Shown here piece by piece: positions 6,572 to 50,582 of a DNA stretch of 52,668 nt (its first letter is position 1; the number at the start of each line of letters is the position of its first letter). Source of the DNA: Gammaproteobacteria bacterium RIFCSPLOWO2_12_47_11 (GTDB taxonomy: Bacteria > Pseudomonadota > Gammaproteobacteria > Eutrophobiales > Eutrophobiaceae); NCBI GenBank assembly GCA_001801885.1, contig MGYU01000075.1, positions 1 through 52,668 of the forward strand. Reading direction: 5' to 3'. The position numbers and the translations under genes are program-made. The notes beneath the pieces were generated by a model. It was given only the letters and a program-made list of their open reading frames with translations, was not told the origin of the DNA and did no database searches.

Positions 6572-7465
6572 ATGCAGATCACAGCCGGAATGGTTAAAGA
6601 ATTACGCGAGCGTACCGGCGCTGGTATGATGGATTGCAAAAAGGCCCTGGAAAAGGCCAAGGGTGATATCGAGAACGCGATTGAGGCCATGCGAAAATCA
6701 GGTGTTGCCAAGGCCGCAAAAAAGGCCGGTCGTATTGCAGCGGAGGGTAATATACTCATCAAGCAGAATGCTGAAACAGGTGAGACAGTCATCCTTGAAG
6801 TGAATTCCGAAACGGACTTTGTTGCCAAGGATGATAATTTCAAGAGCTTCAGCGAGCAGGTTGCGGACTGCATCCTGGCCAATCATCCCGCCAATGTAGA
6901 TGTACTCATGACCGTGCCGATTGCTGCCGGTTCCGGACAAACAGTCGAAGAAACGCGCCAGCAACTGGTCGCCAAGCTTGGCGAGAATCTCAGTGTCAGG
7001 CGGTTTTTGCTGCACAAACTGCAGGGTGACAGACTCGGTATTTATTTACACGGTACGCGGATAGGCGTACTTGTCGACATGCAATCGGGTGATGATACGC
7101 TGGCCAAGGACATTGCCATGCATGTAGCAGGTCATCAGCCACCACCAGTGTGTATTTCTGAGGATCAGATTGCAGCGGAAACGCTGGCAAAGGAAAAGGA
7201 TGTGTTTATTGCCCAGGCGCGGGAGAGCGGCAAGCCGGATAATATCATTGAAAAAATGGTTTCCGGACGCATTGCCAAATTCAAAAAGGAAATTACCCTG
7301 CTGGGCCAGCCCTTTGTTAAAGATCCGGAGACCACGGTTGACAAGCTACTGGCCAGGGCCGGAGCCAAAGTCAATCAGTTCATCCGCTATGAAGTCGGCG
7401 AGGGACTGGAAAAACGCAGTGATAATTTTGCTGAAGAAGTAATGGCACAGGCCAGGGGAGAATAA
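6572..7465 (+). CDS. tsf: translation elongation factor Ts
   Basis: The N-terminal UBA-like motif [24 protein letters not shown] is present, and the gene lies directly downstream of rpsB. Confidence 0.95.
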
Positions 7466-7469
7466 ACCC

Positions 7470-8210
7470 TTGGCAACCCCGGCAGAGATCAACAACAGTA
7501 TCAAATACCGGCGGGTTCTCATAAAACTCAGTGGCGAGGCTTTACTGGGCAATGCTGCGTATGGCATCGATCCTGCCATGATCCGGCGCATGGCCGAAGA
7601 GGTGACGGAGCTGGCCAGTGCCGATGTGCAGGTGGCCATTGTGATTGGTGGCGGTAATATCTTTCGGGGTGCAGGACTGGCTGCTGCCGGCGTAGACAGG
7701 GTCACGGCTGATCAAATGGGGATGCTCGCGACCATCATGAATTCACTTGCCATGCAGGATGCCCTGGAGCGGTTGGGGAAACATGCCCGCGTCATGTCGG
7801 CCATCAAAATGAACCAGATTTGTGAAGACTATATCCGCCGCCGTGCCATCCGCCATCTTGAAAAAGGCCGCGTTATTATACTGGCGGCCGGTACCGGCAA
7901 TCCTTTTTTTACAACGGACTCCGCGGCCAGCCTGCGGGCCATCGAGATCAATGCAGATTTACTGATTAAGGCCACCAAAGTGGATGGTGTCTATTCGGAT
8001 GATCCGGTCAAAAACAAATCTGCAAAACGTTATGTACAGCTGAGTTACGATGAAGTCCTGGAGCGAAAACTTAAAGTCATGGATGCCACGGCTGTTGTAC
8101 TATGCCGCGAAAACCATATGCCTCTCAGGGTGCTGGACATGACCCGGCCTGGTGCCCTGATGCGGGCAGTACAGGGTCTGGATGAAGGCACATTAGTAAC
8201 GAGCAAGTAG
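7470..8210 (+). CDS. pyrH: UMP kinase
   Basis: Motifs [36 protein letters not shown] and [12 protein letters not shown] are present. The apparent start is TTG at 7470. Confidence 0.94.
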
Positions 8211-8225
8211 TTAGGGAGGAAGGCG

Positions 8226-8783
8226 ATGACAAAGAATATTATCAGTAATGCTGATCAGCGCATGAACAAAAGTCTGGAAACATTGAAGCACGATTTGGGC
8301 AAGATCAGGACCGGTCGTGCACACACCAGTTTGCTGGATCATATTACCGTGAATTATTACGATAGCGAGGTACCTATCAACCAGGTGGGTAATGTCGGCG
8401 TGCTTGATGCCAGGACTTTGACCATAAACGCCTGGGATAAAAGTGCCATCCCGAATATCGAGAAGGCTATTTTAAGCTCTGATCTTGGTCTCAACCCGGT
8501 CACTGCAGGCGATGTCATTCGCATACCCTTGCCACCCCTGACTGAAGACAGGCGCAAGGAATTGATTAAAGTAGTCAGAGCAGAGGCCGAGAAGGCCAGG
8601 GTGGCCATCCGCAATATCAGGCGTGATGCCAATCATTCTTTCAAGGAAATGATAAAAAACAAAAGTATCTCGGAAGATGAAGAGCGACGTTCCGAGGATC
8701 GGGTCCAGAAATTGACGGATGATCACATCACTCTCATCGACAAGCTGATTGAAGAGAAAGAGAGTGAATTGATGGAAATCTGA
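8226..8783 (+). CDS. frr: ribosome recycling factor
   Basis: 185 aa with [39 protein letters not shown] and RNIRRDAN. Confidence 0.95.
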
Positions 8784-25804: not shown

Positions 25805-26608
25805 TTGGAAAGCAGCATAGTATTAAAAATAATTCATAATTATATGATTAATATGAGTATTATCAGAAAGCTCCTGGGCAGGACCAATTCAACCAGCGGG
25901 GTATCACCTTTACGGCAGCATGCCGCACAGCTTGCTGAACATGAAGGACTCAACCAGCGTTTACAAAATATCTATGGACGGGAAAAGATTGAACTACAGA
26001 TGCTCTATGAGAAATGGGTGGTCAAGGACACCTGGCTGTTAAAACATGAAGCCTTGCCTCTGTTATTTGGTATTGATCCGGAAAGCAATACACAGCTATT
26101 ACAGCCTGAACTGCTAGATAATATCAATCAACAGTGGTGCCATTCTAAAGATTGTGTGGAGCAGGGATTACTTAAGGTGATTAACCGGGAACAAGCAGAA
26201 GAAAACTGGCGCGTCAGCCCACTCGATATCTATCGCTGGGCCAGGATCAGCCGTATGCAGTTACCCGATGTCTTTAACAGGATGATGGAATATGTCTCCA
26301 GAACTATAAAACAACCGGAATTACAAAAAGCTTCCCAGGACGATTCCAATATTGATTATGGTTATATTAAATTTGATGAAAACCGGGAGAAGGTGTTGGG
26401 TATTGCTCTTGCACTGTTGGCTGCCTACCCGGAGAAGTGCAAAAACAGCCGTGGACAGGTGAAGGTGGATAAAATTGCCGGCCTGATATATGAGAAAGGT
26501 GAATTATGGCTGGGTAATGAATCACTGGATCTGTCAACAACTGTAATCAGGGATTTAATCAGTAAGTGGTTAAATACCCTGCCAGCGCCACCAGACGCTA
26601 ATGGGTAA
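25805..26608 (+). CDS. hypothetical protein (no recognisable domain)
   Basis: Long ORF with no competing conserved gene on the opposite strand. The start is uncertain (TTG 25805, or ATG 25844/25853). The 3' end overlaps the convergent vWA-FHA gene by 11 nt. I recognise no motif. Confidence 0.55.
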   Translation: MESSIVLKIIHNYMINMSIIRKLLGRTNSTSGVSPLRQHAAQLAEHEGLNQRLQNIYGREKIELQMLYEKWVVKDTWLLKHEALPLLFGIDPESNTQLLQPELLDNINQQWCHSKDCVEQGLLKVINREQAEENWRVSPLDIYRWARISRMQLPDVFNRMMEYVSRTIKQPELQKASQDDSNIDYGYIKFDENREKVLGIALALLAAYPEKCKNSRGQVKVDKIAGLIYEKGELWLGNESLDLSTTVIRDLISKWLNTLPAPPDANG

Positions 26609-28115
26609 ACGGCGCCCTGGTATTCTGCATTTCAGTCACTTCTTCGAATGTATAGTCTGCCGGTAACAGCGTAAATCTGAGATTAATATCACCGATTTCA
26701 ATAATATCGCCTTCACGCAGGATTTGTTTATCGGTCTTTTTATTATTTACATAGACCCCGTTTAATGAGCCCAGGTCGGTGATTGTAAATATATCACCTT
26801 TGTCACGATCAATTTCGGCATGCCTTCTTGAAACAGAACTGTCCCGCAGTGTCATTTCATTATCTGTACTCCGCCCGATTCTCCATATGGTGTTTGTTAT
26901 CGGGTAACGTTTTTTTGTCTCGTCCTGGAATACCAGATATGCATAGGGTTTGAATTCCTTATAACTATTGGATACCGCCTGCCTCTTTTTATCCTGATTG
27001 TTAATGATCAGGAAAAAAGCAGCGATTGTAATTATCAATAGAATGATCAGGGCTGCTGGTATCCCGTACCATAACCACAAATTTATCTTACCGGCTGGCA
27101 ATTCTCTGGTAATGACGACAGGCTGTTGAGCAAGTGCTTGGGCAGGGGTAATTCCAGCTTGTGCAGGCTGGGTGGGTTCCGCCTGTTTTAGTGTACGAGT
27201 TGTGGGTAAACTAACCGGAATTTCGGCCTGGTATTTGCCAGTATCCGTTTCAAACAACAGATTAATAATAAAGTTTTCTTTACTCCGGCCGTTGAGCAAT
27301 GAAGATAAATCGATATTGAATCTGCCGCCATTATCAATACTGTCAAAGGGATTATTCAAAAAAGCCTCTGGCAATTTTAAATTGCGGTCCACTTCAATAA
27401 ACTGGCCGCCGGTTTCATCACTCAGCCTGCGTAATGTTTGCAGGGCGACTGAAAGCGCCACAGAGCGTGGATAACCCAGTCCGGTTATCACAACACCCGT
27501 CTGTTTTGCGGCCTTGATGACATCATTATGAAAATAGGCCGTATCTTCCGCCAGACCATCAGAAAAAAGATAGACTGATTTACGATCAGCTTTCACTTTT
27601 CCAAGCAGATCAATCGCTGTCAGAACGCTTCGGTATAATTCTGTAGTTTGACCAATAGCACGTAATCTTTCTGCTGCCGTCTTAATCTGTTCATTTGATG
27701 TCCCGATAGGTACTTCAAGCGATAATGCCTTGTTAAAACTGGCCAGGCCAATCCTGTGGTGTTCACTGGAGGAGCCCAGTATACTTGCAATATCCTTTTT
27801 ATTCTGGTCTATGATGTTTTGACGGGCCGGATCGCTGGTGTCAATTACCAGCAAGATTGCTGTGACGGCATCTTTCCAGGGATAATGTTCTGTATTACTT
27901 ACAGACAGTGTTTTGTCATCTCCGCTGGCCGTAATCGCGAGGACTGGCTCGGCGGTTTTTAATCGATAATCGCAATTTAATTTTTTATTTGACCCGGATG
28001 GGAGGCAGGAAACGGCAAGATTATCTGAAATTACCGGCACCCCGTAAACAGGATGCGCCGCCATAAATAGTATGGATAACAATAAAATTACGGTTATTTT
28101 AGTTTCTCTTTTCAT
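26598..28115 (-). CDS. signal peptide + periplasmic vWA-like domain + single TM + cytoplasmic FHA domain protein
   Basis: The signal peptide is KITVILLLSILFMAAHPVYG. vWA/MIDAS-like elements are LLVIDTSDP, GQTTELY and YLFSDGL. The TM segment is WLWYGIPAALIILLIITIAAFFLII. The FHA signature is WRIGRSTDNEMTLRDSSVSRRHAEI....GSLNGVYVNNKK...GDIIEIGDINLRF. Confidence 0.85.
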   Translation of the reverse strand: MKRETKITVILLLSILFMAAHPVYGVPVISDNLAVSCLPSGSNKKLNCDYRLKTAEPVLAITASGDDKTLSVSNTEHYPWKDAVTAILLVIDTSDPARQNIIDQNKKDIASILGSSSEHHRIGLASFNKALSLEVPIGTSNEQIKTAAERLRAIGQTTELYRSVLTAIDLLGKVKADRKSVYLFSDGLAEDTAYFHNDVIKAAKQTGVVITGLGYPRSVALSVALQTLRRLSDETGGQFIEVDRNLKLPEAFLNNPFDSIDNGGRFNIDLSSLLNGRSKENFIINLLFETDTGKYQAEIPVSLPTTRTLKQAEPTQPAQAGITPAQALAQQPVVITRELPAGKINLWLWYGIPAALIILLIITIAAFFLIINNQDKKRQAVSNSYKEFKPYAYLVFQDETKKRYPITNTIWRIGRSTDNEMTLRDSSVSRRHAEIDRDKGDIFTITDLGSLNGVYVNNKKTDKQILREGDIIEIGDINLRFTLLPADYTFEEVTEMQNTRAPFTH

Positions 28116-28124
28116 GTGTCATTA

Positions 28125-28643
28125 TTATTTGTCCGGAAACATCGGATCGGGTAGATCATAAAACTGTATTTTAATACTTTCTTGCCCTGATCGGGGTGCA
28201 TCCCTCAATTCATCGATAATATTATCACGATCTTCGACTTCACCAAGTTGCGCTATCCCTTTGTTCAGATTTGAATTTGCCTTGATTACCATCTCATGCA
28301 ATGCATTTGAATACTCCAGCCGGTGTGCCCGGGGGGGAGAAGGTGATGCCAGGTTCTCAATCCGGGACACCCAAAGATATACAGCCCCGCCTTCTCCGGT
28401 GATCTTGTTCGGTTGCCGAACATGGGCCGCAATTAGTTGAAACCGCTCTGGCAGAATTTCAGAAGTAGGCCAGCCGAGCAGGGGAGGATAGGATAAGTAA
28501 GTTACGATATAGAATACCGAAGTTAATATGATCGTCCCGGCCTTTACTTTCCATGACCAGTTGGAGTAAAGATTGATACTGAGCAATATCAATCCAATTA
28601 AAACATAGGCAGCAACCAGTCCTGGTATTCCCAAGATAAACAT
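28125..28643 (-). CDS. 2-TM membrane protein, unknown function
   Basis: It has two N-terminal hydrophobic helices followed by a soluble domain of about 110 aa. It lies 9 nt upstream of the vWA-FHA gene and 34 nt downstream of the ExbD-like gene. No motif recognised. Confidence 0.6.
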   Translation of the reverse strand: MFILGIPGLVAAYVLIGLILLSINLYSNWSWKVKAGTIILTSVFYIVTYLSYPPLLGWPTSEILPERFQLIAAHVRQPNKITGEGGAVYLWVSRIENLASPSPPRAHRLEYSNALHEMVIKANSNLNKGIAQLGEVEDRDNIIDELRDAPRSGQESIKIQFYDLPDPMFPDK

Positions 28644-28677
28644 ATTTATCCCCTGTTTCCAAAGATTATTATGATTT

Positions 28678-29274
28678 TTATTGACCTAATATGACAAGCT
28701 GTTTTGGCAGAAAATTAATGTCAGAGATATCTCCGTCTCTTCCTACCTTGAACCGTAATACGGTTTTTTCATCACCCTTGTTCTCAAGAGTAACCGTCCC
28801 GTAGTATTTGACTTCAAGTTTTGGATTGACCTTGTCCAGACGAATTTTTGTCTCTACCGGTTTGCCGGTTTCCGTTGCATAGTAATGGAGGTTTAAAACA
28901 TATTCGCCCGGGACCACACCACGCAATGTGACCACTTCCTGGTTCAGCGGGTTGGATACTTCTTCGCCATTGATAGTGATTGTATCGTTGATTAACCCAC
29001 GATCATCACGATCAAGATGTAATAATCCTGCCGCCGGATTTCTGAACCATATGAGCTGTCCTTCCGGATCTTCTATCCAGGTATCGATATCATCCGGGCT
29101 GTTGTCTTCCCAGGTAATGGTAATAATGTATTCTGCCTTGGGGTCAATAATGCCGGATTTGGCCTCTGGATTCATAAACATAATCGCAACCAGGAACAGA
29201 AAGGTAAATCCGAGCAAGGCATTGAATAACAAATCTGTAAACGGGTCCGCCTGAGTGCGTTGCTTGTAGAACAT
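28678..29274 (-). CDS. ExbD/TolR-like TM subunit with non-canonical periplasmic beta-rich domain
   Basis: The N-terminal DPFTDLLFNALLGFTFLFLVAIMF resembles the ExbD/TolR TM helix with its conserved Asp (TP-x-I-D-V-M-L-V-LL-IFM). The remainder (DIDTWIEDPEGQLIWFRNP...LHLDRDDRG...PGEYVLNLHYY) is unlike the ExbD periplasmic domain. It recalls DUF2135/YfaP-like beta-sandwich motifs from memory. It lies 4 nt downstream of the ExbB-like gene. Confidence 0.6.
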   Translation of the reverse strand: MFYKQRTQADPFTDLLFNALLGFTFLFLVAIMFMNPEAKSGIIDPKAEYIITITWEDNSPDDIDTWIEDPEGQLIWFRNPAAGLLHLDRDDRGLINDTITINGEEVSNPLNQEVVTLRGVVPGEYVLNLHYYATETGKPVETKIRLDKVNPKLEVKYYGTVTLENKGDEKTVLRFKVGRDGDISDINFLPKQLVILGQ

Positions 29275-29278
29275 TAGA

Positions 29279-30061
29279 TCAGTTTATCTTGGGTAGTATA
29301 TAAACCTGGGCCAGGTGTCTGGTTGCCTCCATCAATTTATCCACGCTGGTGTCGAGCATGTGATATTGACTGGCAGCCAGCATACTACCGACCAGGCCTG
29401 CCAGGGTTGTATACAGTGCAGTACCCATTCCTATACTCATATGTTTCAGGATCTTCTGCATGGATGTCACATCAAAATCAGTAATGTTGGCAACCGAGCC
29501 CAACATGAAAATGAACCCGATGATGGTGCCGAGCAGACCAAGTTTGATCATGATGTCAGCCGAGAACCAGCCTATTTCATGCGGCCGTTTCAGTTTTGAT
29601 TCGTATACTTCAATCAGATCGGTATTGCTGTCTACAATATGATCATCCGTCTTTGCGTGATTAGTACCCTTGTTAAGCAGGTCATGTATATAACTTGTGA
29701 CTATGCAATCAGGAAGTACTGTATTTCCATTAATATGTACCTTGTCACCTACCATATGTAATTGAATGTTAGCATTATCACGCACCAGTGCTTCAACTAC
29801 TCTTGAATCATTGATTTGCCTGGAGATATACGCAACACGCAAGGCACAATGGATGGCCACAAATATATACAGGATGGTAATTGCATAGGATATATAACTT
29901 TTATCGCTTGAATATAATAACAGCAACACATTTTCGTGCCATGCCAGGGTGACTGCGAAGATAAATATGCCAGTGAAGATAAGCCAGGCAAGCAATAAAT
30001 GGTGCATTCCCTCTTGTAAAGATTCTTCTGGTGTAATGAAGGTTTTTATATCAATTTTCAT
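29279..30061 (-). CDS. MotA/TolQ/ExbB proton-channel family protein (atypical, 4 predicted TM)
   Basis: The C-terminal half has the family signature KLGLLGTIIGFIFMLG and GMGTALYTTLAGLVGSMLAASQY. Two extra N-terminal TM helices are present. The start is set at MKIDIK (30061), which overlaps the DUF302-like gene stop by 11 nt. The track start is 30097. Confidence 0.8.
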   Translation of the reverse strand: MKIDIKTFITPEESLQEGMHHLLLAWLIFTGIFIFAVTLAWHENVLLLLYSSDKSYISYAITILYIFVAIHCALRVAYISRQINDSRVVEALVRDNANIQLHMVGDKVHINGNTVLPDCIVTSYIHDLLNKGTNHAKTDDHIVDSNTDLIEVYESKLKRPHEIGWFSADIMIKLGLLGTIIGFIFMLGSVANITDFDVTSMQKILKHMSIGMGTALYTTLAGLVGSMLAASQYHMLDTSVDKLMEATRHLAQVYILPKIN

Positions 30062-30536
30062 ATGGTTTTGACCATTCCAGTGCTGCGTAATCGACAATTT
30101 TTATTAATTGGTTGTTCAAGGCATGCATCAGTTCATTTAACCTGATATCGGTATTTTGTTCAGGCCATAGTGGAGCTGAAATAATATATGAGTTTGCCTT
30201 GCCTCTTACCGTAACCCGGCCCGGGCAGGTATTGATCAGTTCCGGGTCCAATTCAAGCATTTTCTGGGCAAATGTCAGGTTACAATACAATATTACCTCG
30301 TAATCAGGAAAATCTTCATTTCCACGCAATTTGATCGCCTGCCCAATATGCAGGCGATCCACAATTCGCAGATTATGTTCTGTCATTGCAAATTCAATGT
30401 CTTCAAGAATGTCCTGCAGCGATTTGTCAGAGGATATTTCATAATTATTATTTTGACCGCTTGCATGGGCATGTGTATGAAATGAAAGAAACAGGCTGAG
30501 AAAAATTATAACGAATATATGAGGATATTGATGCAT
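30051..30536 (-). CDS. secreted DUF302-like protein
   Basis: Signal peptide IFVIIFLSLFLSFHTHAHA. The body (NLRIVDRLHIGQ...YEVILYCNLTFAQKMLELDPELINTCPGRVTV) fits my memory of the DUF302 pattern. Confidence 0.6.
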   Translation of the reverse strand: MHQYPHIFVIIFLSLFLSFHTHAHASGQNNNYEISSDKSLQDILEDIEFAMTEHNLRIVDRLHIGQAIKLRGNEDFPDYEVILYCNLTFAQKMLELDPELINTCPGRVTVRGKANSYIISAPLWPEQNTDIRLNELMHALNNQLIKIVDYAALEWSKPYEN

Positions 30537-30567
30537 TAATCAGACATATTGTTCTGGTAAAAAAAGG

Positions 30568-31131
30568 TCATTCTCTAATGATCACTTTTGTCCCAATGGT
30601 CACATACTGCTTTAATTCCATGATCTGTTCATTGGTAAGCGCGATACAACCATTGGTCCAGTTAAAGCCATTATGAATCTGGAGTTGTTGATCATCCTGC
30701 TGGCCGATGCCATGTATACCGATATATCCTCCAAGCCTCGTGTCCTGCGGAGGTTTTTGTCGGGTCTTGTAGGCAACAGCAATTTTTTTAAATTCGTTGG
30801 CAGAAATAACATTATTTTTATAGCCATACCAGGCATCCAGTAAATTAGGATAGTCAATCTGTATGAAGTAGTAAAACTGGCTGTCATTCTTGAAGTCTAT
30901 GACTTTGTAAATACCGAGAGGTGTTTTTTTGTCGCCATGTTCCCGCTTGGTGCCATTTCCGCCCTTGCCGGTCGCGATATGAAACTGTTTAACAGTCTGC
31001 TCTCCTTTTACAACAGCAAGTTCCTGTTTTGATTTGGTAATGACGATGTCATAGTCATTACTCATGGCATAAGCCATATTGCACAGCAACATCAAGCACA
31101 GTGTTTTCAGTATTATTCTTCGTATTAGCAT
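30568..31131 (-). CDS. L,D-transpeptidase (YkuD domain)
   Basis: Signal peptide plus the catalytic signature GIHG......TNGCIALTNEQ (H-x-G ... S/T-x-G-C-I-x-L). Confidence 0.85.
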   Translation of the reverse strand: MLIRRIILKTLCLMLLCNMAYAMSNDYDIVITKSKQELAVVKGEQTVKQFHIATGKGGNGTKREHGDKKTPLGIYKVIDFKNDSQFYYFIQIDYPNLLDAWYGYKNNVISANEFKKIAVAYKTRQKPPQDTRLGGYIGIHGIGQQDDQQLQIHNGFNWTNGCIALTNEQIMELKQYVTIGTKVIIRE

Positions 31132-31420: not shown

Positions 31421-31458
31421 CAAACAACAAATAAATAAGGGGCCTTACGGCCCCTTAT
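31421..31458 (-). terminator. rho-independent terminator of pqqA
   Basis: A perfect 10-bp stem ATAAGGGGCC/GGCCCCTTAT (31435-31444 / 31449-31458) has a 4-nt loop (GTAA on the minus strand). It is followed on the minus strand by TTATTTGTTGTTTG. It lies 26 nt after the pqqA stop. Confidence 0.8.
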
Positions 31459-31483
31459 CGCTAGCTTTTAAAGCTTCAGTACA

Positions 31484-31558
31484 TTACTTGTTGTTGATGT
31501 ACATGGTCACTTCGAAGCCAAAACGAATGTCGTTATATTCTGGTGTAGTCCACTTCAT
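31484..31558 (-). CDS. pqqA: coenzyme PQQ precursor peptide PqqA (24 aa)
   Basis: The hand translation is MKWTTPEYNDIRFGFEVTMYINNK*. This is close to Pseudomonas-type PqqA (MWTKPA.TDLRIGFEVTMYF..R as I recall it), including the E-x-x-x-Y crosslink pair. SD GAGGAG lies 6 nt upstream. It is too short for the ORF track. Confidence 0.9.
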   Translation of the reverse strand: MKWTTPEYNDIRFGFEVTMYINNK

Positions 31559-31643
31559 GATAATCTCCTCATTCTGATTTAGATTGAAAATTTTTGTAGC
31601 CTAGGTTGCCTGTTAACGGGATCCATAAACTACCAATTTGTCG

Positions 31644-31660
31644 TTGCAGTATCTGTGCCA
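31644..31660 (-). promoter_or_regulatory. sigma-54 (-24/-12) promoter upstream of pqqA
   Basis: The minus strand reads TGGCACAGATACTGCAA, against the consensus TGGCAC-N5-TTGCW. The GG/GC spacing is exact and there is one mismatch. It lies about 85 nt upstream of the pqqA ATG. Confidence 0.6.
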
Positions 31661-44195: not shown

Positions 44196-45452
44196 ATGAA
44201 TATATTGATAATTGACGATTCGAAGGATTTCCGGGCGCTGGTGAGATCATATCTTTCCAAACAACTCAAAGTGGCGCGGCTGGTTGACTACGAGGTAGAA
44301 AATCTGGGCAAGCCCGGTCCGGATTTCAAATGGTCAGACTATGATGTGCTGCTGCTGGATTACAATCTGGGCGGCGGTGAAAACGGGTTTACCTGGTTAA
44401 AGGAGTTTTCTTCAGCAACAGGATTCCCTCCAACCATTATTCTGACGGCAGAAGGTGATGAGTATATTGCAGTCAAGGCCATCAAACTGGGTGCCGCAGA
44501 CTATCTCAATAAAGTGGATATGTCTCCCAGGCGCCTGGTTGAAGCTATCATCGAGGCGACTGAATATACACCCCAGAAAAAAGCCGAACTGGAAAAAGAC
44601 AAAGTTCAGGCCGAAGGCCTGGTTCATGAGTTACATAATAAAAACCAGAAAGCATCCAGACAACCCGAAATCGGCTCTGCATATAAATTTGTCAGGGAGA
44701 TTGGCCAGGGCGCGATGTCCAAGGTTTATCTGGCCGAACGCGAGTCCGATCAATTATCTCTGGTACTCAAGATACTGGAGATAGACGCCTCAACCAGTGA
44801 AGTATCGGTCTGTCGATTCATGCAGGAAGCTGAACTGGTTTCAAAATTGTCCAGTCCGTTTGTTGTCAGGATTTATGATTATGGTCTGACAAATGAATAT
44901 TGTTTTATCGCCATGGAGTTTTTTTCCAGGGGTGATTTGAAGCAAAGGATGGAACTGAGATTATCTTCAGATCTTGCAATCAATTACATGACGCACATTG
45001 CCTACGGCCTGGATGCCATACACAGGATCGGAGTAGTACACAGGGACCTAAAACCGGCGAATATCATGTTCCGCGGTGATGACAGTCTGGCATTGGCGGA
45101 TTTTGGCATATCAAAAAAACTGGATTCCCCCTCTGAATTGACTACTCTCGGGCAGATACTTGGAACACCACATTATATAAGTCCTGAACAGGGCGAGGGC
45201 AGGGCCATCGATCCGCGCTCTGATATTTACAGTGCTGGCGTGCTGCTGTATGAGTTGCTGACACGGGAAAAACCTTACACGGCATCTACACCAGCCGCAT
45301 TGATCTACCAGCATGTGTATTCACCTGTTCCTGTATTGCCGGGGAAGTTGGCCGGATATCAGGAGATCATTAATACAACCATGGCCAAGCATCCGGCAGA
45401 ACGTTACCAGACGGCAGCGGAGCTGATCCGGGCACTGGAAGCAGTGGCATAA
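44196..45452 (+). CDS. response-regulator receiver domain fused to Hanks-type Ser/Thr protein kinase
   Basis: REC elements are ILIIDDS, VLLLDYNL, ILTAEG and KAIKLGAADYL. Kinase elements are the G-loop IGQGAMSKVY, the Lys in LVLKIL, the catalytic VHRDLKPANI, DFG, and GTPHYISPEQ. Confidence 0.88.
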   Translation: MNILIIDDSKDFRALVRSYLSKQLKVARLVDYEVENLGKPGPDFKWSDYDVLLLDYNLGGGENGFTWLKEFSSATGFPPTIILTAEGDEYIAVKAIKLGAADYLNKVDMSPRRLVEAIIEATEYTPQKKAELEKDKVQAEGLVHELHNKNQKASRQPEIGSAYKFVREIGQGAMSKVYLAERESDQLSLVLKILEIDASTSEVSVCRFMQEAELVSKLSSPFVVRIYDYGLTNEYCFIAMEFFSRGDLKQRMELRLSSDLAINYMTHIAYGLDAIHRIGVVHRDLKPANIMFRGDDSLALADFGISKKLDSPSELTTLGQILGTPHYISPEQGEGRAIDPRSDIYSAGVLLYELLTREKPYTASTPAALIYQHVYSPVPVLPGKLAGYQEIINTTMAKHPAERYQTAAELIRALEAVA

Positions 45453-45458
45453 CTCTGT

Positions 45459-46682
45459 CTAGCTGCTTTTTTCATTCATCCGGTCACCCAGCTTGTTTAA
45501 CCACCATTGGGCCTGTTCCCGGGTATTTTTATAGCTGATGGCCCGGTTCAGCGCTTTGGCCGAGCGTGACAGATCATTATTGTGGTAGGCAGCGATGCCC
45601 AGTAATAACCAGGCCTCGGCAATATGGATTATTTTTTCATCCTTGATGGCCTGTTCCAGGGAGATGATGGCGTTCTGCCAGTTCTCCTGTTCAAAATAAA
45701 CCTGGCCTATCCTGAAATAAATGCCGGGATCATTTTTTATCCTGGCAATCTCGGTCAGGACTTCTGTAGTGCGGCCAAATTCCCTGGCAAGCTGCCAACT
45801 GTTTGCCAGTAATTCAAGATTGTCAACACTTCTGGATACCTTGCCACGGTCAATCTCGTCGCTCAGCAATCTGGCCGCCTTAAGGGGGATTTCCTCATTA
45901 AGATAGAGTTGTACAAGCTGGATTATTTCCGGTTCACCCAGAATATTTTTTCTCAGTGCCAGCTCATAGATGGCCAGGGATTGTTTATATTGTTTCAGGA
46001 TTTGATAGGTAGCGGCCAGTTGCAGCCAGTAAATGTCCTTGCCGGGGTATAGCTTGATCATTTTTTCCAGCAGGGCAGCGGCATTCTTGTGATCATTGGT
46101 TTCATAAAATCCGGCAAGCAACATTTCATACCAGCCTTGTTCGGGTTTTTGTGATTTATCGATGGCTTTTTGTGTCTGGGAGATCATGTTTCCGTAATCC
46201 TCCAGCCGGTAATAGATAGTCGCTGCCATCATATGTGCTTCCGGTTTGGGGTTGGCCTCTTTTGCAAACCAGGCATTCAGATAGATCAGACTCTCTTTGT
46301 GTTTGTCGTCATTGGCCAAAAGCTGGGCAATGATAAAGTTAATAGTATGAGTGACTTCGTCCGGCAATGCATTTGATTCAACTGATTTTATGAAAGCGGC
46401 CGTTGCCTGGGAATATTTGTCCATCGCAATATAGACATAGCCCAGTGTCTGGTTTGCCACAGATTCTTCATATTGGCTGATGTTCGTGCTTAACAGCCCC
46501 GTCAATTTTGACTCGGCCTGTGTATATTCATTCTTGTCCATCAATTCGCGGGCGGCGGAAATGGCTTCATACGCATTATTCGAGAGCAGATACTGATCTT
46601 CCTGCTCTGCTGTTACAGGGCAGATGCAGGCAAACAGGGTGGTAATGAAAAAAAAGCCGGGTAGTATGTTTTTGAAGCTCAT
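45459..46682 (-). CDS. TPR-repeat periplasmic protein (TtpD-like, TonB2-cluster associated)
   Basis: Signal peptide and multiple TPR-like repeats. It lies immediately downstream of tonB, as in Vibrio TonB2 clusters. Confidence 0.75.
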   Translation of the reverse strand: MSFKNILPGFFFITTLFACICPVTAEQEDQYLLSNNAYEAISAARELMDKNEYTQAESKLTGLLSTNISQYEESVANQTLGYVYIAMDKYSQATAAFIKSVESNALPDEVTHTINFIIAQLLANDDKHKESLIYLNAWFAKEANPKPEAHMMAATIYYRLEDYGNMISQTQKAIDKSQKPEQGWYEMLLAGFYETNDHKNAAALLEKMIKLYPGKDIYWLQLAATYQILKQYKQSLAIYELALRKNILGEPEIIQLVQLYLNEEIPLKAARLLSDEIDRGKVSRSVDNLELLANSWQLAREFGRTTEVLTEIARIKNDPGIYFRIGQVYFEQENWQNAIISLEQAIKDEKIIHIAEAWLLLGIAAYHNNDLSRSAKALNRAISYKNTREQAQWWLNKLGDRMNEKSS

Positions 46683-46685
46683 TAA

Positions 46686-47342
46686 TTATTTTATCAGGGT
46701 AAATTTTATATCTTGCCGTGCACGTTTCTCGACAGGTTGTCCATTCACAATTTCAGTTGCAAACTTCCATCTGGAGACAGCCTCTATCACAGCACGATCA
46801 AATATACCGGGAGGTTCACCCTTGACCACTTCAATGTTTGAAACCGAACCATCGGTCATTATTGTAAATTCGACAGTCACCATGCCTTCAATACCGGCAC
46901 GTAATGCGCGTGGTGGATAGACCGGTTCAATCCGGGTTGTCGGGACAACATTGGTAGTGATCCCGGAAGTAGAGGGGATGGCAGATGGTGATGATTTAAG
47001 GTAATCACCCAGATAAGGCACCCCGTCAATGGCCAAAGGGACATTGATATTCGGCATGGAGAGATCCGGAGTAACCTGTTTTGGTTTTGGCACATCGGGT
47101 TGTGCAATTTTGGGTAAGGGTGGTGTTTCTTCAGGCGGAGGTGGTTCGTCCGGCCTGGGTTTTTTTTCTTCATCTACACGTGTTTGTTGTTCCAGCTGAA
47201 TAAAATCAATCCAGTTAATGCTTTCCAGGCGTGGCAAAGCAACCATTTCATTAGTCACCAGTTGATGGATTAAAAGAAACAGGAGTGCATTAATAATAAT
47301 GGAGACGCTGATGATTAACGGCTGTTTGATTACTCTGCGCAT
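46686..47342 (-). CDS. tonB: energy transducer TonB
   Basis: N-terminal TM anchor, Pro-rich spacer (PRPDEPPPPEETPPLPK) and a TonB C-terminal domain (YPPRALRAGIEGMVTVEFTI..DGSV..IEVV). Confidence 0.88.
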   Translation of the reverse strand: MRRVIKQPLIISVSIIINALLFLLIHQLVTNEMVALPRLESINWIDFIQLEQQTRVDEEKKPRPDEPPPPEETPPLPKIAQPDVPKPKQVTPDLSMPNINVPLAIDGVPYLGDYLKSSPSAIPSTSGITTNVVPTTRIEPVYPPRALRAGIEGMVTVEFTIMTDGSVSNIEVVKGEPPGIFDRAVIEAVSRWKFATEIVNGQPVEKRARQDIKFTLIK

Positions 47343-47373
47343 TTTGTGAACACCAAATTTCGGCTTTGCGTTA

Positions 47374-47778
47374 TTACTTGCGCTCGGCGGCTATGGCTAC
47401 ATTCGTGACTCCTGCCAGTCTGACCTGGTCAAGCACATCGACGGCTGTACCTGTGCGTGATTCCTTGTCAGCGAGAATGATGACGGTCCCTTCAGGGTTT
47501 TGTGCGTGCAGACGTTCGACGTGGGCACGGATGGTCCTCAAATCGACAAGTTGATTGTCTATCCAGATTTCCCCGCTTTTATTAATGGCGATAATCAGAT
47601 TTCCCCGCTCCTGGCGCACTGCTGTTTGTGCAGTGGGCCGGTTGACGTCTATCCCTGCTTCCTTGGTAAAAGAGGCCGTTACCAGAAAAAAGATCAGCAG
47701 GATAAACACTACGTCAATTAATGGTGTCAGGTTGACATTCGCTGCCGAGGATTCCTGATCTGTGTGACTATAGCGCAT
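47374..47778 (-). CDS. exbD: biopolymer transport protein ExbD/TolR
   Basis: VNLTPLIDVVFILLIFFLV TM helix with the conserved Asp. 134 aa. Confidence 0.9.
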   Translation of the reverse strand: MRYSHTDQESSAANVNLTPLIDVVFILLIFFLVTASFTKEAGIDVNRPTAQTAVRQERGNLIIAINKSGEIWIDNQLVDLRTIRAHVERLHAQNPEGTVIILADKESRTGTAVDVLDQVRLAGVTNVAIAAERK

Positions 47779-47780
47779 GG

Positions 47781-48281
47781 TTATATCTGTAGCAGGTCTT
47801 TGGCTTTTTCAAGTTGTGTTTTTACACGGTAGTCCAGATCTGAGCTGAAGAACAATCCGGCCAGTGCCGTAACCAGCCCGGCGATGGTTGGCAGGAGAGC
47901 GCGGGATATTCCCGAGGCCATACCCTGGGTATTGCCGGTACCGAATACCTTCAATACTTCAAAAATGGCGATCATGCCGGTGACAGTGCCCAGCAGTCCC
48001 AGTAATGGTAACACTGTAGTAATGGCCTTGATGGGGATCAGGTTTTCCTTGGAAGAGATCACAATATCGGCCAGCAGGCCTTCACGCACCCTCCATGCAT
48101 ACCAGGAGGAATGATCATTACGATGCTGCCATTTATTGAGGACCTCTTCCAATTTTTGCGGGAACACCATAAAAAAATACCAGTAGCGTTCGAGGATCAG
48201 GGCCCATAAGAAAAAAGACGTCACCAGCACGGCAAAAAATACGGGGCCGCCTGTCTCGAAGAATTCAAGTATCGAATCCAT
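47781..48281 (-). CDS. exbB: MotA/TolQ/ExbB proton channel protein (short ExbB)
   Basis: LPLLGLLGTVTGMI and GISRALLPTIAGLVTALAGLFF signatures. Confidence 0.88.
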   Translation of the reverse strand: MDSILEFFETGGPVFFAVLVTSFFLWALILERYWYFFMVFPQKLEEVLNKWQHRNDHSSWYAWRVREGLLADIVISSKENLIPIKAITTVLPLLGLLGTVTGMIAIFEVLKVFGTGNTQGMASGISRALLPTIAGLVTALAGLFFSSDLDYRVKTQLEKAKDLLQI

Positions 48282-48283
48282 AA

Positions 48284-49627
48284 TTATTTCTTCTGGTGGG
48301 ATTCCGCAAGCATGGCGACATAGGCAGCACTCTTTTCATCCAGAACATGGATCAGGCGGTTACTTTTTGATGAAAGAGCACTGTGTAGCAATAACAGGGG
48401 AATGGCAGTCATCAGTCCCTGAACTGTTGTCACCAGTGCCTTTGAGATGCCACCTGACATCACTCTGGGATCGCCGGTACCGAACAGGGTAATGGACTGG
48501 AAGGTTTCGATAATACCCGTAACCGTACCGAGCAGCCCCATCAGCAGGGCAATCTCACCCAGCAGGGCGACTACACGCAGGCCTTTTTGCAGTATGGGTG
48601 TTTCCTTGAGTATGGCCTCATCGAGTTTCAATCCCAGTGTTTCGGTATCTGCATCGGGATTGGCTTTGTAGACGGCCATTATGCGGCCGAGTGGATTATC
48701 CCCCGGCGCGTTGACATGCAACTGGACCTTGATCTTTCTGTCTATGCTGCTCAAAACGATGAAGCGTTTAAGTGCAATGAGCAAACCAATAATCCCGATA
48801 ACGATGATCATATAACCGATGATACCGCCCTGTTGTATACGGGTTTTCATATCAGGGACCTGAACCAGCAGGGCCAGCATTGCCCCACGGGTGGGATCAA
48901 CCGGAAAAGGAACCATGCCGGACGTGGACTGTTCAAGTGCCGCTGCCATGGATTGAAAACGGCCGGCGGGTTGTCTGCCGGGTTCAATGAAATGGTCACT
49001 CTCAGGCAGGTATCGCAGAAAATGGCCATTGGATACGGCATTAAATACACCTATGCGGGTGACATTCTGTTGCAGTTCATCACCTGTGCTGGTAATAATT
49101 TTTGCAGGAAAAGTTACAACCTTGCCTGCTTCCGCCAGTTCATCAAGGACTATATGCCATAATTTTTCCAGTTGGTCGATGGCAGGCAACGCCCGGCTGG
49201 CCGAAAGTGCATCAACAAGATCGTCACGTCCCGGCGTTTGGGTGGAAACAAGAGAGGTATCTATGATGGAATCAATATCGTTGGCGATCTGCCTGACCAC
49301 ACCATGCAATTCACCCAGTGAACCCATGCGTTGTGACATAATGGTATTCTGTGCATTGATTTCACGTTCATTCTGTTCGTAGATGGATTTCAGTTCTTCA
49401 CTGCGCTTTTCTTCCGCCTGTAAACGGGCCTTGGCTTCCATCAGCAGTTGTTGTTGCTGGTCATGCGCCTCCCTGAATTTCTGTTCGCGTTCAAGATTTT
49501 CCTGCCTTTCCAGTGTACGTTCCTTGCGTACCTGTTCTACCAATGCATCAATCGTGGCCGGCGCTTCTGCAGCGGCAGCAGAATTCATAAAAAATAATGA
49601 CAGTATGAGTAGTGTGTACGTTTTCAT
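48284..49627 (-). CDS. large MotA/TolQ/ExbB-family protein with periplasmic N-terminal extension (TtpC-like)
   Basis: Signal peptide, a coiled-coil N-terminal region, and a C-terminal ExbB signature (LMGLLGTVTGIIETF, GISKALVTTVQGL). Confidence 0.85.
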   Translation of the reverse strand: MKTYTLLILSLFFMNSAAAAEAPATIDALVEQVRKERTLERQENLEREQKFREAHDQQQQLLMEAKARLQAEEKRSEELKSIYEQNEREINAQNTIMSQRMGSLGELHGVVRQIANDIDSIIDTSLVSTQTPGRDDLVDALSASRALPAIDQLEKLWHIVLDELAEAGKVVTFPAKIITSTGDELQQNVTRIGVFNAVSNGHFLRYLPESDHFIEPGRQPAGRFQSMAAALEQSTSGMVPFPVDPTRGAMLALLVQVPDMKTRIQQGGIIGYMIIVIGIIGLLIALKRFIVLSSIDRKIKVQLHVNAPGDNPLGRIMAVYKANPDADTETLGLKLDEAILKETPILQKGLRVVALLGEIALLMGLLGTVTGIIETFQSITLFGTGDPRVMSGGISKALVTTVQGLMTAIPLLLLHSALSSKSNRLIHVLDEKSAAYVAMLAESHQKK

Positions 49628-50391
49628 TGTGAACGTTCCGGCGCCTGCACCGGGATCATGAAGAGATCAGGCGGTGATTGTTTGCGTGCTATAAGTATGC
49701 CCTTGGCTATAGACTGGTTATATTCAGCGGGCAGGGTCTTCCACGTTTTTCCCTGTTTGTCCCAGTAACCGCTCTGGCGGCCATCGAGGGTCTGGTAGAG
49801 CAGCGCAACCCGGCCTATGCGCAATGTATCAACAGTATATTTTTTATTGTCCTGCACTATGGCATCGCTGCTGGTGTTTATGGTGCGTCCGTAATCCATT
49901 TCAATCTGGTAGGATTCCATGATCCTGCGGTACTTGTCCGGTAATGACACATCTGGCCGGTCCATCATTTCCTTGACGATCTGCAACCGTGCCTGCCGTT
50001 CGTCCATGAGAAAGGGCATATCCAATGCAATAAATTTTTCCAGCACGTCTATCATGTTCAGCATAAGCGGCACGATATTACGTTGTGTTTCCTCTACACT
50101 GTCCAGTTGTTTCACGATGGAAGCGAGTGTTTCACTCTGTGTACTAATCAGTTTTTCAAGTTGTTGATTGTAGGATTTCAGGCTGTCTGTCTGTTGCAGG
50201 GTGATCCTGTATTCCTGCAACATGGCATTGGCATCATCGGCCAGATGGTCGATGGTTTTCTGTGAAAGCCTGGATTCCTCATTGGTCTTTACGGTATCCT
50301 CAATGGCCGTATCCAGTGCGGTTGTTCCCGCCAGACCCCAGGCAGGAATACACAGTACCAACAGGCCAAGTATTTTTCGGGATATTTTCAT
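49624..50391 (-). CDS. DUF3450 family protein (TonB2-cluster first gene, TtpB-like)
   Basis: PFLMDERQARL...DKYRRIMESYQIEMDYGRTI is characteristic of DUF3450. The start is set at MKISRKILGLLVL (signal peptide). The track start at 50475 adds 28 residues. Confidence 0.8.
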   Translation of the reverse strand: MKISRKILGLLVLCIPAWGLAGTTALDTAIEDTVKTNEESRLSQKTIDHLADDANAMLQEYRITLQQTDSLKSYNQQLEKLISTQSETLASIVKQLDSVEETQRNIVPLMLNMIDVLEKFIALDMPFLMDERQARLQIVKEMMDRPDVSLPDKYRRIMESYQIEMDYGRTINTSSDAIVQDNKKYTVDTLRIGRVALLYQTLDGRQSGYWDKQGKTWKTLPAEYNQSIAKGILIARKQSPPDLFMIPVQAPERSQ

Positions 50392-50433
50392 ATTAGTTGC
50401 CGGGAAATTTTCCTGTGGGGCTTTATAATTTGA

Positions 50434-50452
50434 GCAAATGATAAATGTTCTC
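50434..50452. promoter_or_regulatory. candidate Fur box upstream of the TonB2-type operon
   Basis: GCAAATGATAAATGTTCTC matches 13 of 19 positions of GATAATGATAATCATTATC. It lies 43-61 nt upstream of the ATG at 50391. Confidence 0.35.
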
Positions 50453-50582
50453 ACTATAGATATCCAATAATTCATAAAGTTTTCAAAAAGTCACAAATGA
50501 AATTTCAGAGAAAATACCTGCCAGAAATAAAGACCGGAATTTCAGTATTAATGAATATCAGGTTACGTGATATTTTACACTA

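Follow-up and report, generated by a model that had tools for sequence, protein, structure and literature searches.

A conserved three-gene cassette of bacteria and phages is a candidate proton-driven motor of the MotA/ExbB type

Results

A six-gene cluster with a conserved core of three genes

Three adjacent genes within a compact six-gene cluster, here named A, B and C, form a conserved cassette. We consider this cassette to be the functional unit and, with moderate confidence, most likely an inner-membrane proton-driven motor of the MotA/ExbB type that represents a new family. If this is correct, an unnamed motor cassette is shared by many bacteria and well over a hundred phage genomes.

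The cluster is real and lies within positions 26598-31131 of the window (the whole stretch of DNA that was analysed, 52,668 nucleotides), where six minus-strand ORFs (Table 1) are separated by 31, −11, 4, 34 and 9 nt when the third gene, which encodes subunit A, is taken to start at the ATG at 30061. With this start, the DUF302 gene and the beginning of the subunit A gene overlap by 11 nt; an alternative TTG start at 30097 would yield a subunit A of 272 aa. No convincing terminator was found when the cluster interior was scanned, and a strong terminator is present upstream of the cluster (31434-31459). Sec-type signal peptides can be read from the sequences of the Ldt, the DUF302 protein and the vWA protein. 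The ORF coordinates and gaps agree with a preliminary description of this DNA, which reported a six-gene minus-strand cluster with −11 to 34 nt spacing, and its domain assignments for the six proteins were borne out by Pfam and motif analysis.

Table 1. Positions of the cluster genes and of a second motor-related locus in the window
Feature	Coordinates	Strand	Length (aa)	Pfam match	Remarks
YkuD-type L,D-transpeptidase-fold protein (Ldt), secreted	30568-31131	−	187	YkuD 1.3e-24	First gene of the cluster
DUF302 protein, secreted	30051-30536	−	161	DUF302 5.1e-9	
Subunit A, 4-TM MotA/TolQ/ExbB-family channel protein	29279-30061	−	260	MotA_ExbB	
Subunit B, ExbD-like TM helix and periplasmic β-domain	28678-29274	−	198	none	
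Subunit C, 2-TM protein	28125-28643	−	172	none	
vWA-TM-FHA protein	26598-28115	−	505	FHA 1.8e-20, VWA_2 2.6e-8	
TonB2-type cluster	45459-50475				DUF3450, 447-aa MotA_ExbB protein, ExbB, ExbD, TonB_C, TPR protein

A survey of gene neighbourhoods showed that only the middle three genes travel together, which contradicts the earlier portrayal of all six as one conserved device. The order A-B-C on one strand was observed in each of the 181 loci that carry all three genes, with median gaps of −4 nt from A to B, suggestive of translational coupling, and +6 nt from B to C. The co-occurrence of these core genes extends far outside the source genome, in support of the earlier interpretation, and the 181 loci span Gamma-, Alpha- and Betaproteobacteria as well as phages, among them 29 records from cultured Rhizobium/Sinorhizobium phages and no fewer than 110 viral contigs. 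The abundance of the cassette in phages had been missed in the earlier work. In loci L069 and L071 the triplet stands alone amid unrelated housekeeping genes and, given its additional presence in phage genomes, the triplet is self-contained. Subunit C, formerly treated as a minor part, is a core subunit that follows B in all 181 loci. In loci where A is approximately 50-55% identical and C approximately 55-60% identical, B is 75-81% identical, which points to unusually strong constraint on B. Neither B, C nor the triplet has a Pfam, NCBIfam, PADLOC or PHROGs model, a RefSeq name or a paper in the searchable literature, consistent with the proposal that the system had no existing name.

Subunit A is a MotA/ExbB-family channel protein

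Subunit A matches the Pfam MotA_ExbB model (PF01618) at 2e-9, with 37.7 bits against a gathering cutoff of 22.9, and a profile of 13 homologs matches TolQ structures over the last two TM helices (E 9e-4), in support of its placement in the ExbB/TolQ channel family. In this alignment, 'GLLGT' corresponds to 'GLFGT' of TolQ and 'ALYTT' to 'ALIAT'. The hallmark motor motifs listed in the preliminary description could all be located: 'KLGLLGTIIGF' and 'GTALYTTLAGL' in subunit A, and 'DPFTDLLF' in subunit B. Across 158 homologs of subunit A, three Thr residues (T179, 98%; T218, 93%; T219, 100%) and three Gly residues (G175, G178 and G182, 98-100%) are highly conserved.

At 138-193 aa, the phage versions of subunit A are very short, and their cytoplasmic domain is nearly absent, so any cytoplasmic torque interface is missing there. 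This feature, the plentiful occurrence of the cassette in phages and the fact that ZorA provides the sole defence-library matches (PADLOC, plus the NCBIfam ZorA models) would fit an A-B pair that acts as a gated ion channel, dissipating or sensing the proton motive force instead of generating force. Such a channel could serve in superinfection exclusion, lysis timing or counter-defence in phages, and as a Zorya-like sensor triggered by C and the vWA-FHA protein in cells. We regard this as unlikely, as the ZorA matches (E 3e-5 to 8e-3) are weak and confined to the helices shared across the MotA/ExbB family, subunit A has no long ZorA-type tail, and no ZorC/D-like effector was found nearby. The cassette is also under strong purifying selection in the window's clade, where it is situated in conserved housekeeping synteny (accA, tilS) rather than in a defence island.

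Subunit B pairs an Asp-bearing helix with a predicted DUF2135/YfaP-like domain

The only TM helix of subunit B is N-terminal (residues 11-33) and is followed by a linker of approximately 14 residues and a periplasmic domain of all-β structure (residues 49-187); both the helix and the β-domain are predicted in an AF2 model with a pLDDT of 91. The 'DPFTDLLF' motif at the start of the helix includes Asp14, which 95% of 165 homologs retain and which shares a 'P-x-x-D-hydrophobic-hydrophobic-F' context with the window's own ExbD. Statistically significant similarity to ExbD, TolR or MotB was not found: hhalign placed D14 on the Asp of the window's ExbD over only 15 columns (probability 4%), the Pfam ExbD model matched one of 37 family members (at 0.005), and subunit B had no match in Pfam, NCBIfam, PADLOC or PHROGs, including the ExbD/TolR model PF02472 and the OmpA-like domain. 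The family profile aligned with residues 140-217 of Escherichia coli YfaP (hhalign probability 91%, E 1e-6), while the Pfam DUF2135 model does not match the window's subunit B and matches three of the 37 homologs at 2e-3 or weaker. This indicates that the β-domain is a distant relative of DUF2135/YfaP and not a member by the Pfam threshold. The initial view of B as an atypical ExbD-like subunit holds in that AF2, conservation and hhalign all point to a helix with a conserved Asp joined to a β-domain of non-ExbD type. The family comprises 1812 clusters at 50% identity, and its members among the matches listed are all unnamed or 'hypothetical'.

The β-domain features a strikingly conserved cluster of acidic and His residues (D62, D64, H86, D88, R89, D90, D91, D97, N111, E113, R118 and H130), predicted to be probably a metal- and/or glycan-binding site. 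This enzyme-like density of invariant polar residues, along with the missing ExbD homology, could mean that B is an independent membrane-anchored DUF2135 periplasmic protein, perhaps an enzyme or a binding protein, and that A pairs with an ExbD/TolR encoded elsewhere or works alone. We find this rather improbable, because A is adjacent to B in all 181 loci with a median overlap of 4 nt, including phages with no other ExbD, and because a simple anchor would not need the Asp that nearly all homologs retain in the TM helix.

Subunit C is a conserved 2-TM protein

Subunit C features a 2-TM hairpin, a 'GWP' motif with an invariant Gly just past TM2 and a periplasmic β1-β2-β3-α-β4-β5 domain, and it ends in a Pro-rich tail ('YDLPDPMFPDK'). 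It can be identified across a range that extends from marine Gammaproteobacteria to Rhizobium phages, G57 being retained by 99% of homologs and R105 by 94%, and it has no family match in Pfam, NCBIfam, PADLOC or PHROGs. The periplasmic domain is possibly OB-like, although this fold assignment is weak: the AF2 model has a pLDDT of 73 and Foldseek returned only weak OB-fold matches (E ≥ 0.1).

Accessory genes are lineage specific

The Ldt, DUF302 and vWA-FHA genes are accessory, lineage-specific add-ons to A-B-C. Of the 66 genome loci, 52 carry an Ldt gene upstream of A, all of them from Gammaproteobacteria, and the DUF302 gene is found only in a subset of the gammaproteobacterial loci that carry Ldt. 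The Ldt itself matches the LdtF/DpaA and ElsL models only in part, with scores well short of the cutoffs. Loci with Ldt or DUF302 mostly share an upstream HK/regulator and, in part, the downstream tilS-accA genes, so inherited gene order is inseparable from functional linkage here, and the association of Ldt and DUF302 with the cassette may reflect the former.

The vWA-TM-FHA protein comprises a signal peptide, a vWA domain (residues 85-245), a Pro/Ala/Gln-rich linker, a TM helix (approximately 345-372) and an FHA domain (411-475). The TM helix is followed by 'QDKKRQ' ahead of the FHA domain, which places the vWA domain on the periplasmic side and the FHA domain on the cytoplasmic side. The gene is directly downstream of C in 25 of the 66 genome loci, all of them from the window's own clade, and in all three loci found when the protein itself was used as a query. 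Its restriction to this clade and its absence from close relatives with the same flanking genes argue against its earlier description as an integral part of the system. The window also encodes, at 44196-45452, a fusion of a Hanks-type kinase and a receiver domain, which was counted among the precedents for the vWA-FHA protein.

A single obligate trans-envelope sensing or signalling machine, to which Ldt, DUF302 and vWA-FHA are all integral, would be in keeping with the tight gene spacing and absence of a detected internal terminator, the invariable adjacency of vWA-FHA to A-B-C where present (25 + 3 loci) and the retention of Ldt-A-B-C despite broken downstream synteny (for example, L027 and L031), but is very improbable given that vWA-FHA is missing from 41 of 66 genome loci (including the close relatives L002, L003, L021 and L023, with identical flanks), that the alpha- and betaproteobacterial copies and all phage copies lack Ldt and DUF302, and that both are also missing from the second cassette copy of one MAG (L050, compared with L004).

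Discussion

A model for the A-B-C motor

In our preferred reading of A-B-C as a proton-driven motor, subunit A would form an oligomer, a pentamer by analogy, around a dimer of the TM helices of B. Asp14 of B would take up and release protons against a conserved Thr ring in A (T179, T218/T219), and this proton cycling would cause relative rotation of A and B. The β-sandwich of B that resembles DUF2135/YfaP would occupy the place of the ExbD/TolR/MotB periplasmic domain. As a third core subunit, C would probably dock its hairpin outside the A ring, as TonB, TolA and GltG do on their motors, with its small periplasmic domain and Pro-rich tail serving as the output. Because the linkers of B and C are short, the complex would be expected to work close to the inner membrane, on its periplasmic side, and not to span the envelope in the manner of TonB. 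In the window's clade, the cassette appears to sit in an operon behind the secreted YkuD-fold enzyme and the DUF302 protein and ahead of the vWA-FHA protein, and these add-ons would most plausibly provide a periplasmic load or adaptor and a phospho-Thr-dependent regulatory link.

Comparison with known systems

Structure prediction has led to the proposal that inner-membrane-tethered vWA proteins encoded beside TolQR-like motors act as force transducers (Mol Biol Evol 2025, PMC12204202). The window's vWA protein is comparable in its periplasmic vWA domain, its Pro-rich/disordered linker to the inner membrane and the proximity of its gene to a TolQ-like motor gene. The proposed transducers feature an N-terminal TM helix (with an SHLS motif or as an Asp-bearing pore helix), a linker and a C-terminal vWA domain, whereas the order is reversed in the window's protein (signal peptide, vWA, linker, TM) and an FHA domain is added. 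Its TM helix also lacks His or Asp, and the adjacent motor has its own B and C subunits. The vWA domain matches DUF58 in Pfam just over the cutoff (23.7 bits against 23.4) and BatA weakly in NCBIfam (14.5 bits against 380); a Bat/aerotolerance operon was rejected, as the MoxR and TPR Bat genes were not found in the cluster.

Myxococcus GltG, from the Agl-Glt gliding system, is a bitopic protein on the MotA/TolQ-type motor AglRQS that has cytoplasmic FHA and periplasmic interaction domains (PMC11761067). The window's FHA domain matches the GltG model (1.6e-11), but the protein scores 43.5 against an NCBIfam cutoff of 650, GltG differs in having N-terminal FHA domains and a C-terminal TonB_C-like domain, and other Glt/Agl genes were not found with the window's protein. 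YfaP, the uncharacterised DUF2135 protein of the E. coli yfaS α2-macroglobulin operon, resembles the periplasmic domain of subunit B but lacks its inserted, invariant 'HLDRDDxG' loop, and no MotA/ExbB-family gene is annotated next to it in E. coli K-12.

Zorya is comparable in that ZorA belongs to the MotA/ExbB family and is also linked to phage biology. The cassette differs in having no ZorA tail, ZorB peptidoglycan-binding domain or ZorC/D/E, and assignment to ZorAB was rejected: PADLOC ZorA matches were at E 3e-5 or weaker over approximately 70-115 residues, NCBIfam ZorA scores were 15-18 bits against cutoffs of 500-700, and the other five proteins had no PADLOC match.

ExbB-ExbD-TonB and TolQ-TolR-TolA are 5:2 motors driven by the proton motive force, with a third, force-transducing subunit. 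A separate TonB system had been reported in the window and was found as a TonB2-type cluster (Table 1). Membership of the Ton system was rejected for the cassette, as Pfam detected no TonB_C domain in the cluster and subunit C shows no similarity to the window's TonB. Tol-Pal was likewise rejected, since the TolA, TolB and OmpA-family models (Pfam, NCBIfam) had no match among the six proteins, in agreement with the reported absence of a TonB, TolA, Pal or OmpA partner; no TBDT, TolB or Pal was found with the cassette. Subunit A is predicted to have four TM helices, as in MotA, rather than the three of ExbB/TolQ, the periplasmic domain of B is DUF2135-like instead of having the ExbD/TolR fold, and C has two TM helices and lacks an SHLS motif, a long periplasm-spanning linker and a TonB_C or TolA_C domain. 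The cassette resembles both motors in its overall plan: A belongs to the same Pfam family, with Thr and Gly residues of the last two helices conserved alike, the gene directly downstream of A encodes a small bitopic protein (B) whose TM helix bears an Asp, and a third membrane-anchored subunit with a periplasmic domain completes a set of three genes in one operon.

Gene content of the cluster

The six minus-strand open reading frames under study had been described from the sequence as a tightly packed group with −11 to 34 nt spacing, and the ORFs and measured gaps bear this out (31, −11, 4, 34 and 9 nt, in order). A consensus scan picked up a strong hairpin terminator just 5' of the cluster and no convincing candidate within it. 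The motifs named in that preliminary description, 'GLLGT', 'ALYTTLAGL' and 'DPFTDLLF', are all present. Four products match Pfam families, while the ExbD-like subunit B and the 2-TM protein C have no match in Pfam, NCBIfam, PADLOC or PHROGs, and none of these resources names B, C or the triplet that they form with the channel protein A. For the vWA-TM-FHA protein (vWA-FHA), a signal peptide and a positive patch following the TM helix place the vWA domain in the periplasm and the FHA domain in the cytoplasm, in agreement with the orientation described earlier. A 267-aa ORF (orf267) without a Pfam match converges on the vWA-FHA gene, overlaps its 3' end by 11 nt, and is kept across the clade at the same place, between the cassette and tilS.

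Features of the window discussed in the text
Feature	Position	Strand	Remarks
orf267	25805-26608	plus	267 aa
vWA-FHA	26598-28115	minus	505 aa; Pfam FHA 1.8e-20, VWA_2 2.6e-8
C	28125-28643	minus	172 aa
B	28678-29274	minus	198 aa
A	29279-30061	minus	260 aa (272 from upstream TTG); Pfam MotA_ExbB 2e-9
DUF302 protein	30051-30536	minus	161 aa; Pfam DUF302 5.1e-9
Ldt (YkuD-fold protein)	30568-31131	minus	187 aa; Pfam YkuD 1.3e-24
Hairpin terminator	31434-31459		3' of PqqA-like ORF
PqqA-like ORF	31486-31563	minus	24 codons (MKWTTPEYNDIRFGFEVTMYINNK); resembles PQQ precursor PqqA
σ54-type −24/−12 element	31645-31660	minus	TGGCACagataCTGCA; precedes PqqA-like ORF
Receiver-kinase hybrid	44196-45452	plus	N-terminal response-regulator receiver domain, Hanks-type Ser/Thr kinase domain (Pkinase 7e-47)
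TonB2-type cluster	45459-50475	minus	six genes: DUF3450, 447-aa MotA_ExbB protein, 166-aa ExbB, ExbD, TonB, TPR protein
Histidine kinase and LuxR-type response regulator	50583-52606	plus	kinase with LapD/MoxY-type periplasmic domain

Control of the Ldt operon by the divergent histidine kinase/σ54-type regulator pair was considered and rejected, as the σ54-type element serves pqqA and the terminator then intervenes. The position of this element 5' of pqqA, the terminator behind it and, in 26 related loci, the location of the PqqA-like peptide between that pair and Ldt indicate that the two-component system probably controls pqqA and not the Ldt operon. A histidine kinase with a LapD/MoxY-type periplasmic domain adjoins a LuxR-type response regulator elsewhere in the window; together with pqqA, this locus hints at PQQ-dependent alcohol oxidation in the source organism. 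The second motor locus reported in the window as a canonical TonB system is real and proved to be of the TonB2 type.

Conservation of the cluster across genomes

A scan with one genome per species returned 66 loci encoding a relative of B, which were compared by tblastn, the queries being all six proteins plus the flanking genes. The genes for A, B and C adjoin in essentially every one of these loci (individual loci, cellular or viral, carry L-numbers here), those of alphaproteobacterial MAGs (L052-L055) and Comamonas (L064, L065) included. The other genes are patchier. vWA-FHA was found in 25 of the 66 loci, every one within the window's own gammaproteobacterial clade, and is missing in close relatives that have the same flanks (orf267, tilS and accA; for example L002, L003, L021 and L023). 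A scan anchored on vWA-FHA returned three loci that all have A-B-C directly upstream. Ldt is encoded in 52 of the 66 and the DUF302 protein in a subset, all gammaproteobacterial, and loci with either gene mostly have a histidine kinase and a σ54-type regulator upstream in common. In one MAG (JANQNX01) there are two paralogous triplets, of which L004 is accompanied by Ldt, DUF302 and vWA-FHA (B 80% identical to the window protein) and L050 is bare (67%).

The fourth gene after C varies by lineage or is absent. In L051 (9136-9837) and L052 (8220-8933) it encodes a DUF3108-like secreted protein of ~235 aa (Pfam ~5e-7 to 8e-7), L053-L055 have ORFs of the same size at the same position, and in Comamonas badia (L065, 9111-9818) this place is taken by a lipoprotein-like ORF of 235 aa that lacks a Pfam match. 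A more distant gammaproteobacterial clade (L056-L062) features two tandem C paralogs where vWA-FHA would be, and no fourth gene is added in L069 and L071.

Across all sources, including the viral matches listed, every one of the 181 loci with all three genes has them in the order A-B-C on one strand, with median gaps of −4 nt (A to B) and +6 nt (B to C). A survey of gene neighbourhoods, the check proposed with the preliminary description, thus finds A-B-C together well outside the source genome, in bacteria and phages. The proposal of a six-gene PMF-coupled trans-envelope sensing or signalling module is therefore upheld in part: the observation is confirmed and A, B and C travel together, but vWA-FHA, Ldt and DUF302 do so patchily. 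The object of interest is a portable A-B-C cassette, smaller and far more widely spread than had been thought.

Carriage by phages

Two triplet-bearing metagenomic contigs also encode terminase, primase and other phage genes, and tblastn of GenBank phages identified homologs of B in 29 Rhizobium/Sinorhizobium phage records. One of these is the classical temperate Rhizobium phage 16-3, in which p040 is the homolog. In RHph_I1_18 the gene preceding B matches MotA_ExbB (4.6e-6), and both this phage and 16-3 have a nearby downstream gene with the hallmarks of C, namely a pair of TM helices plus the motif 'PRL..(L/M)P(Y/A)S'. RHph_I1_18 (L072) also has an annotated vWA-domain protein (6829-8262) ~2 kb downstream of A-B-C, past a tRNA block; this proximity may be coincidental.

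Single-protein scans of viral contigs returned near-identical relatives only, and a degenerate DNA pattern for the invariant M-H-L-D-R-D-D-L-G of B reached further, with at least 120 matches in IMG/VR. Adding a locus recovered by a previous scan brings the viral loci to at least 121. Grouped at 90% B identity, the 121 listed fall into 80 groups. HMMs for A, B and C detected all three genes in 110 of the 121 loci, and in the other 11 A or C was undetected, mostly because the cassette runs up to the edge of its contig. Among the matches listed, recurring neighbours are ClpP, T4-type RNase H, the large terminase subunit, Hsp20, ribonucleotide reductase and GDP-mannose 4,6-dehydratase. The last of these lies directly downstream of C in 14 of the 80 groups listed (for example L126, 8327-9379), which hints at surface glycans, and a family-9 glycosyltransferase gene follows C in L067 (9232-10227) and lies ~4 kb upstream of A in L070. 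These neighbours may tie the phage cassette to the remodelling of surface glycans. Carriage by many phages implies that the cassette works on its own, on an envelope target that is widely shared. The triplet is present in cultured Rhizobium phages (16-3, as p038, p040 and p042, and RHph, RL and P10VF phages) and cultured bacteria (Comamonas badia DSM 17552 and Melaminivora suipulveris), so the cassette is testable.

Features of the three subunits

A PDB search with the single A sequence gave no match, whereas a profile of 13 homologs retrieved TolQ structures (E 9e-4), followed by PomA, ExbB and MotA. The 'GLLGT' of A aligns to TolQ 'GLFGT' and 'ALYTT' to 'ALIAT', and T179, T218 and T219 are conserved in 98%, 93% and 100% of 158 homologs, respectively. 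The predicted topology is MotA-like, with two N-terminal and two C-terminal hydrophobic helices; the stretch between these pairs is ~85 residues in cellular copies and nearly absent in phage copies.

B belongs to a family of 1812 clusters at 50% identity (E ≤ 1e-3), every checked member of which is unnamed or 'hypothetical', and is the most conserved subunit of the triplet (75-81% identity, versus ~50-55% for A and ~55-60% for C at the same loci). Its confident AF2 model (pLDDT 91) has a TM helix (11-33) joined by a short linker to an all-β domain (49-187). D14 in this helix is kept in 95% of 165 homologs and can be aligned onto the Asp of the ExbD encoded elsewhere in the window, but the hhalign alignment spans just 15 columns at 4% probability, so the 'ExbD-like' label holds as a motif-level argument, together with gene position, that stops short of demonstrated homology. 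The β-domain appears instead to be related to DUF2135, as the family profile aligns with E. coli YfaP 140-217 (hhalign probability 91%, E 1e-6); a resemblance to PPC-type domains is fainter. It has an inserted 'HLDRDDxG' loop, and an unbiased alignment identified W55, D62, D64, D90, D91, G93, E113 and G123, many of them polar, as invariant. Foldseek of the whole model against the PDB gave leukocidin matches of low TM score, which were dismissed as meaningless, while matches in BFVD were viral β-sandwich proteins (TM ~0.4), such as a BACON-domain protein, and suggest a glycan-binding-type sandwich and nothing beyond that.

C is a 2-TM hairpin with a basic loop, so by the positive-inside rule both termini are expected to be periplasmic. 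The Gly of a 'GWP' motif right after TM2 is 99% conserved, and the domain is predicted as β1-β2-β3-α-β4-β5 (pLDDT 73) with a Pro-rich C-terminal tail behind it. Foldseek returned only weak OB-fold matches (E ≥ 0.1). C is unrelated to TonB, and homology to it was rejected.

A proposed motor and its relation to known systems

Gene linkage, the conserved pore Thr residues of A and the Asp in the helix of B lead us to regard A-B-C as rather probably a proton-driven motor of the MotA/ExbB type, in which B would act as axle, with C joined to the ring of A as a third subunit. The placement of A in its family, the residue conservation, the B fold and the gene order are directly supported, and we infer the complex, its stoichiometry, rotation, the docking site of C and the ligand. 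Short linkers in B (~14 residues) and C suggest that the motor would work near the inner membrane rather than across the periplasm. The GDP-mannose dehydratase and family-9 glycosyltransferase in phages, and the YkuD enzyme and DUF3108-like proteins in cells, loosely point to envelope glycans or the cell wall as the target, as a lead only.

More tentatively, the data could be joined into a single reading in which A-B-C would be an ion-driven envelope motor of a new class, to be set beside Mot/Pom, Ton/Tol, Agl, Gld/Por and Zor. Its B subunit (a β-sandwich of DUF2135-like type that would bind metal or glycan) and its output subunit C would be peculiar to it. Phages would use it as a portable cassette powering an envelope process in infection, and in free-living marine Gammaproteobacteria it would be tied to a YkuD-fold cell-wall enzyme and to vWA-FHA, the latter coupling it to Ser/Thr phospho-signalling. 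The receiver-kinase hybrid encoded elsewhere in the window is a candidate source of a phospho-Thr ligand for the FHA domain.

New motor families (Ton, Tol, Agl, Gld and Zorya) have each revealed a new process, and to our knowledge MotA/ExbB-type motors are the sole route by which inner-membrane energy reaches the rest of the Gram-negative envelope. The B family is large, strongly conserved and carried by many phages. Source annotations of the homologs, those in RefSeq from Comamonas badia and Melaminivora suipulveris among them, give B, C and the triplet no name. The literature searched holds no description of the triplet, although its coverage of subscription journals is incomplete and a prior description may therefore exist.

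Three of four sequence-level tests place the A-B-C system in the MotA/ExbB motor superfamily, and the features that define Ton, Tol-Pal, Zorya, Bat and the published vWA transducers set it apart from each, as had been concluded earlier for the first four. By analogy, the vWA-TM-FHA protein of the window genome is plausibly a load or regulator of the motor. vWA proteins beside TolQR-like motors have been proposed to be force transducers (PMC12204202), and GltG, which is bound to a motor, has FHA domains in the cytoplasm (PMC11761067); the domain order of the window protein is the reverse of both.
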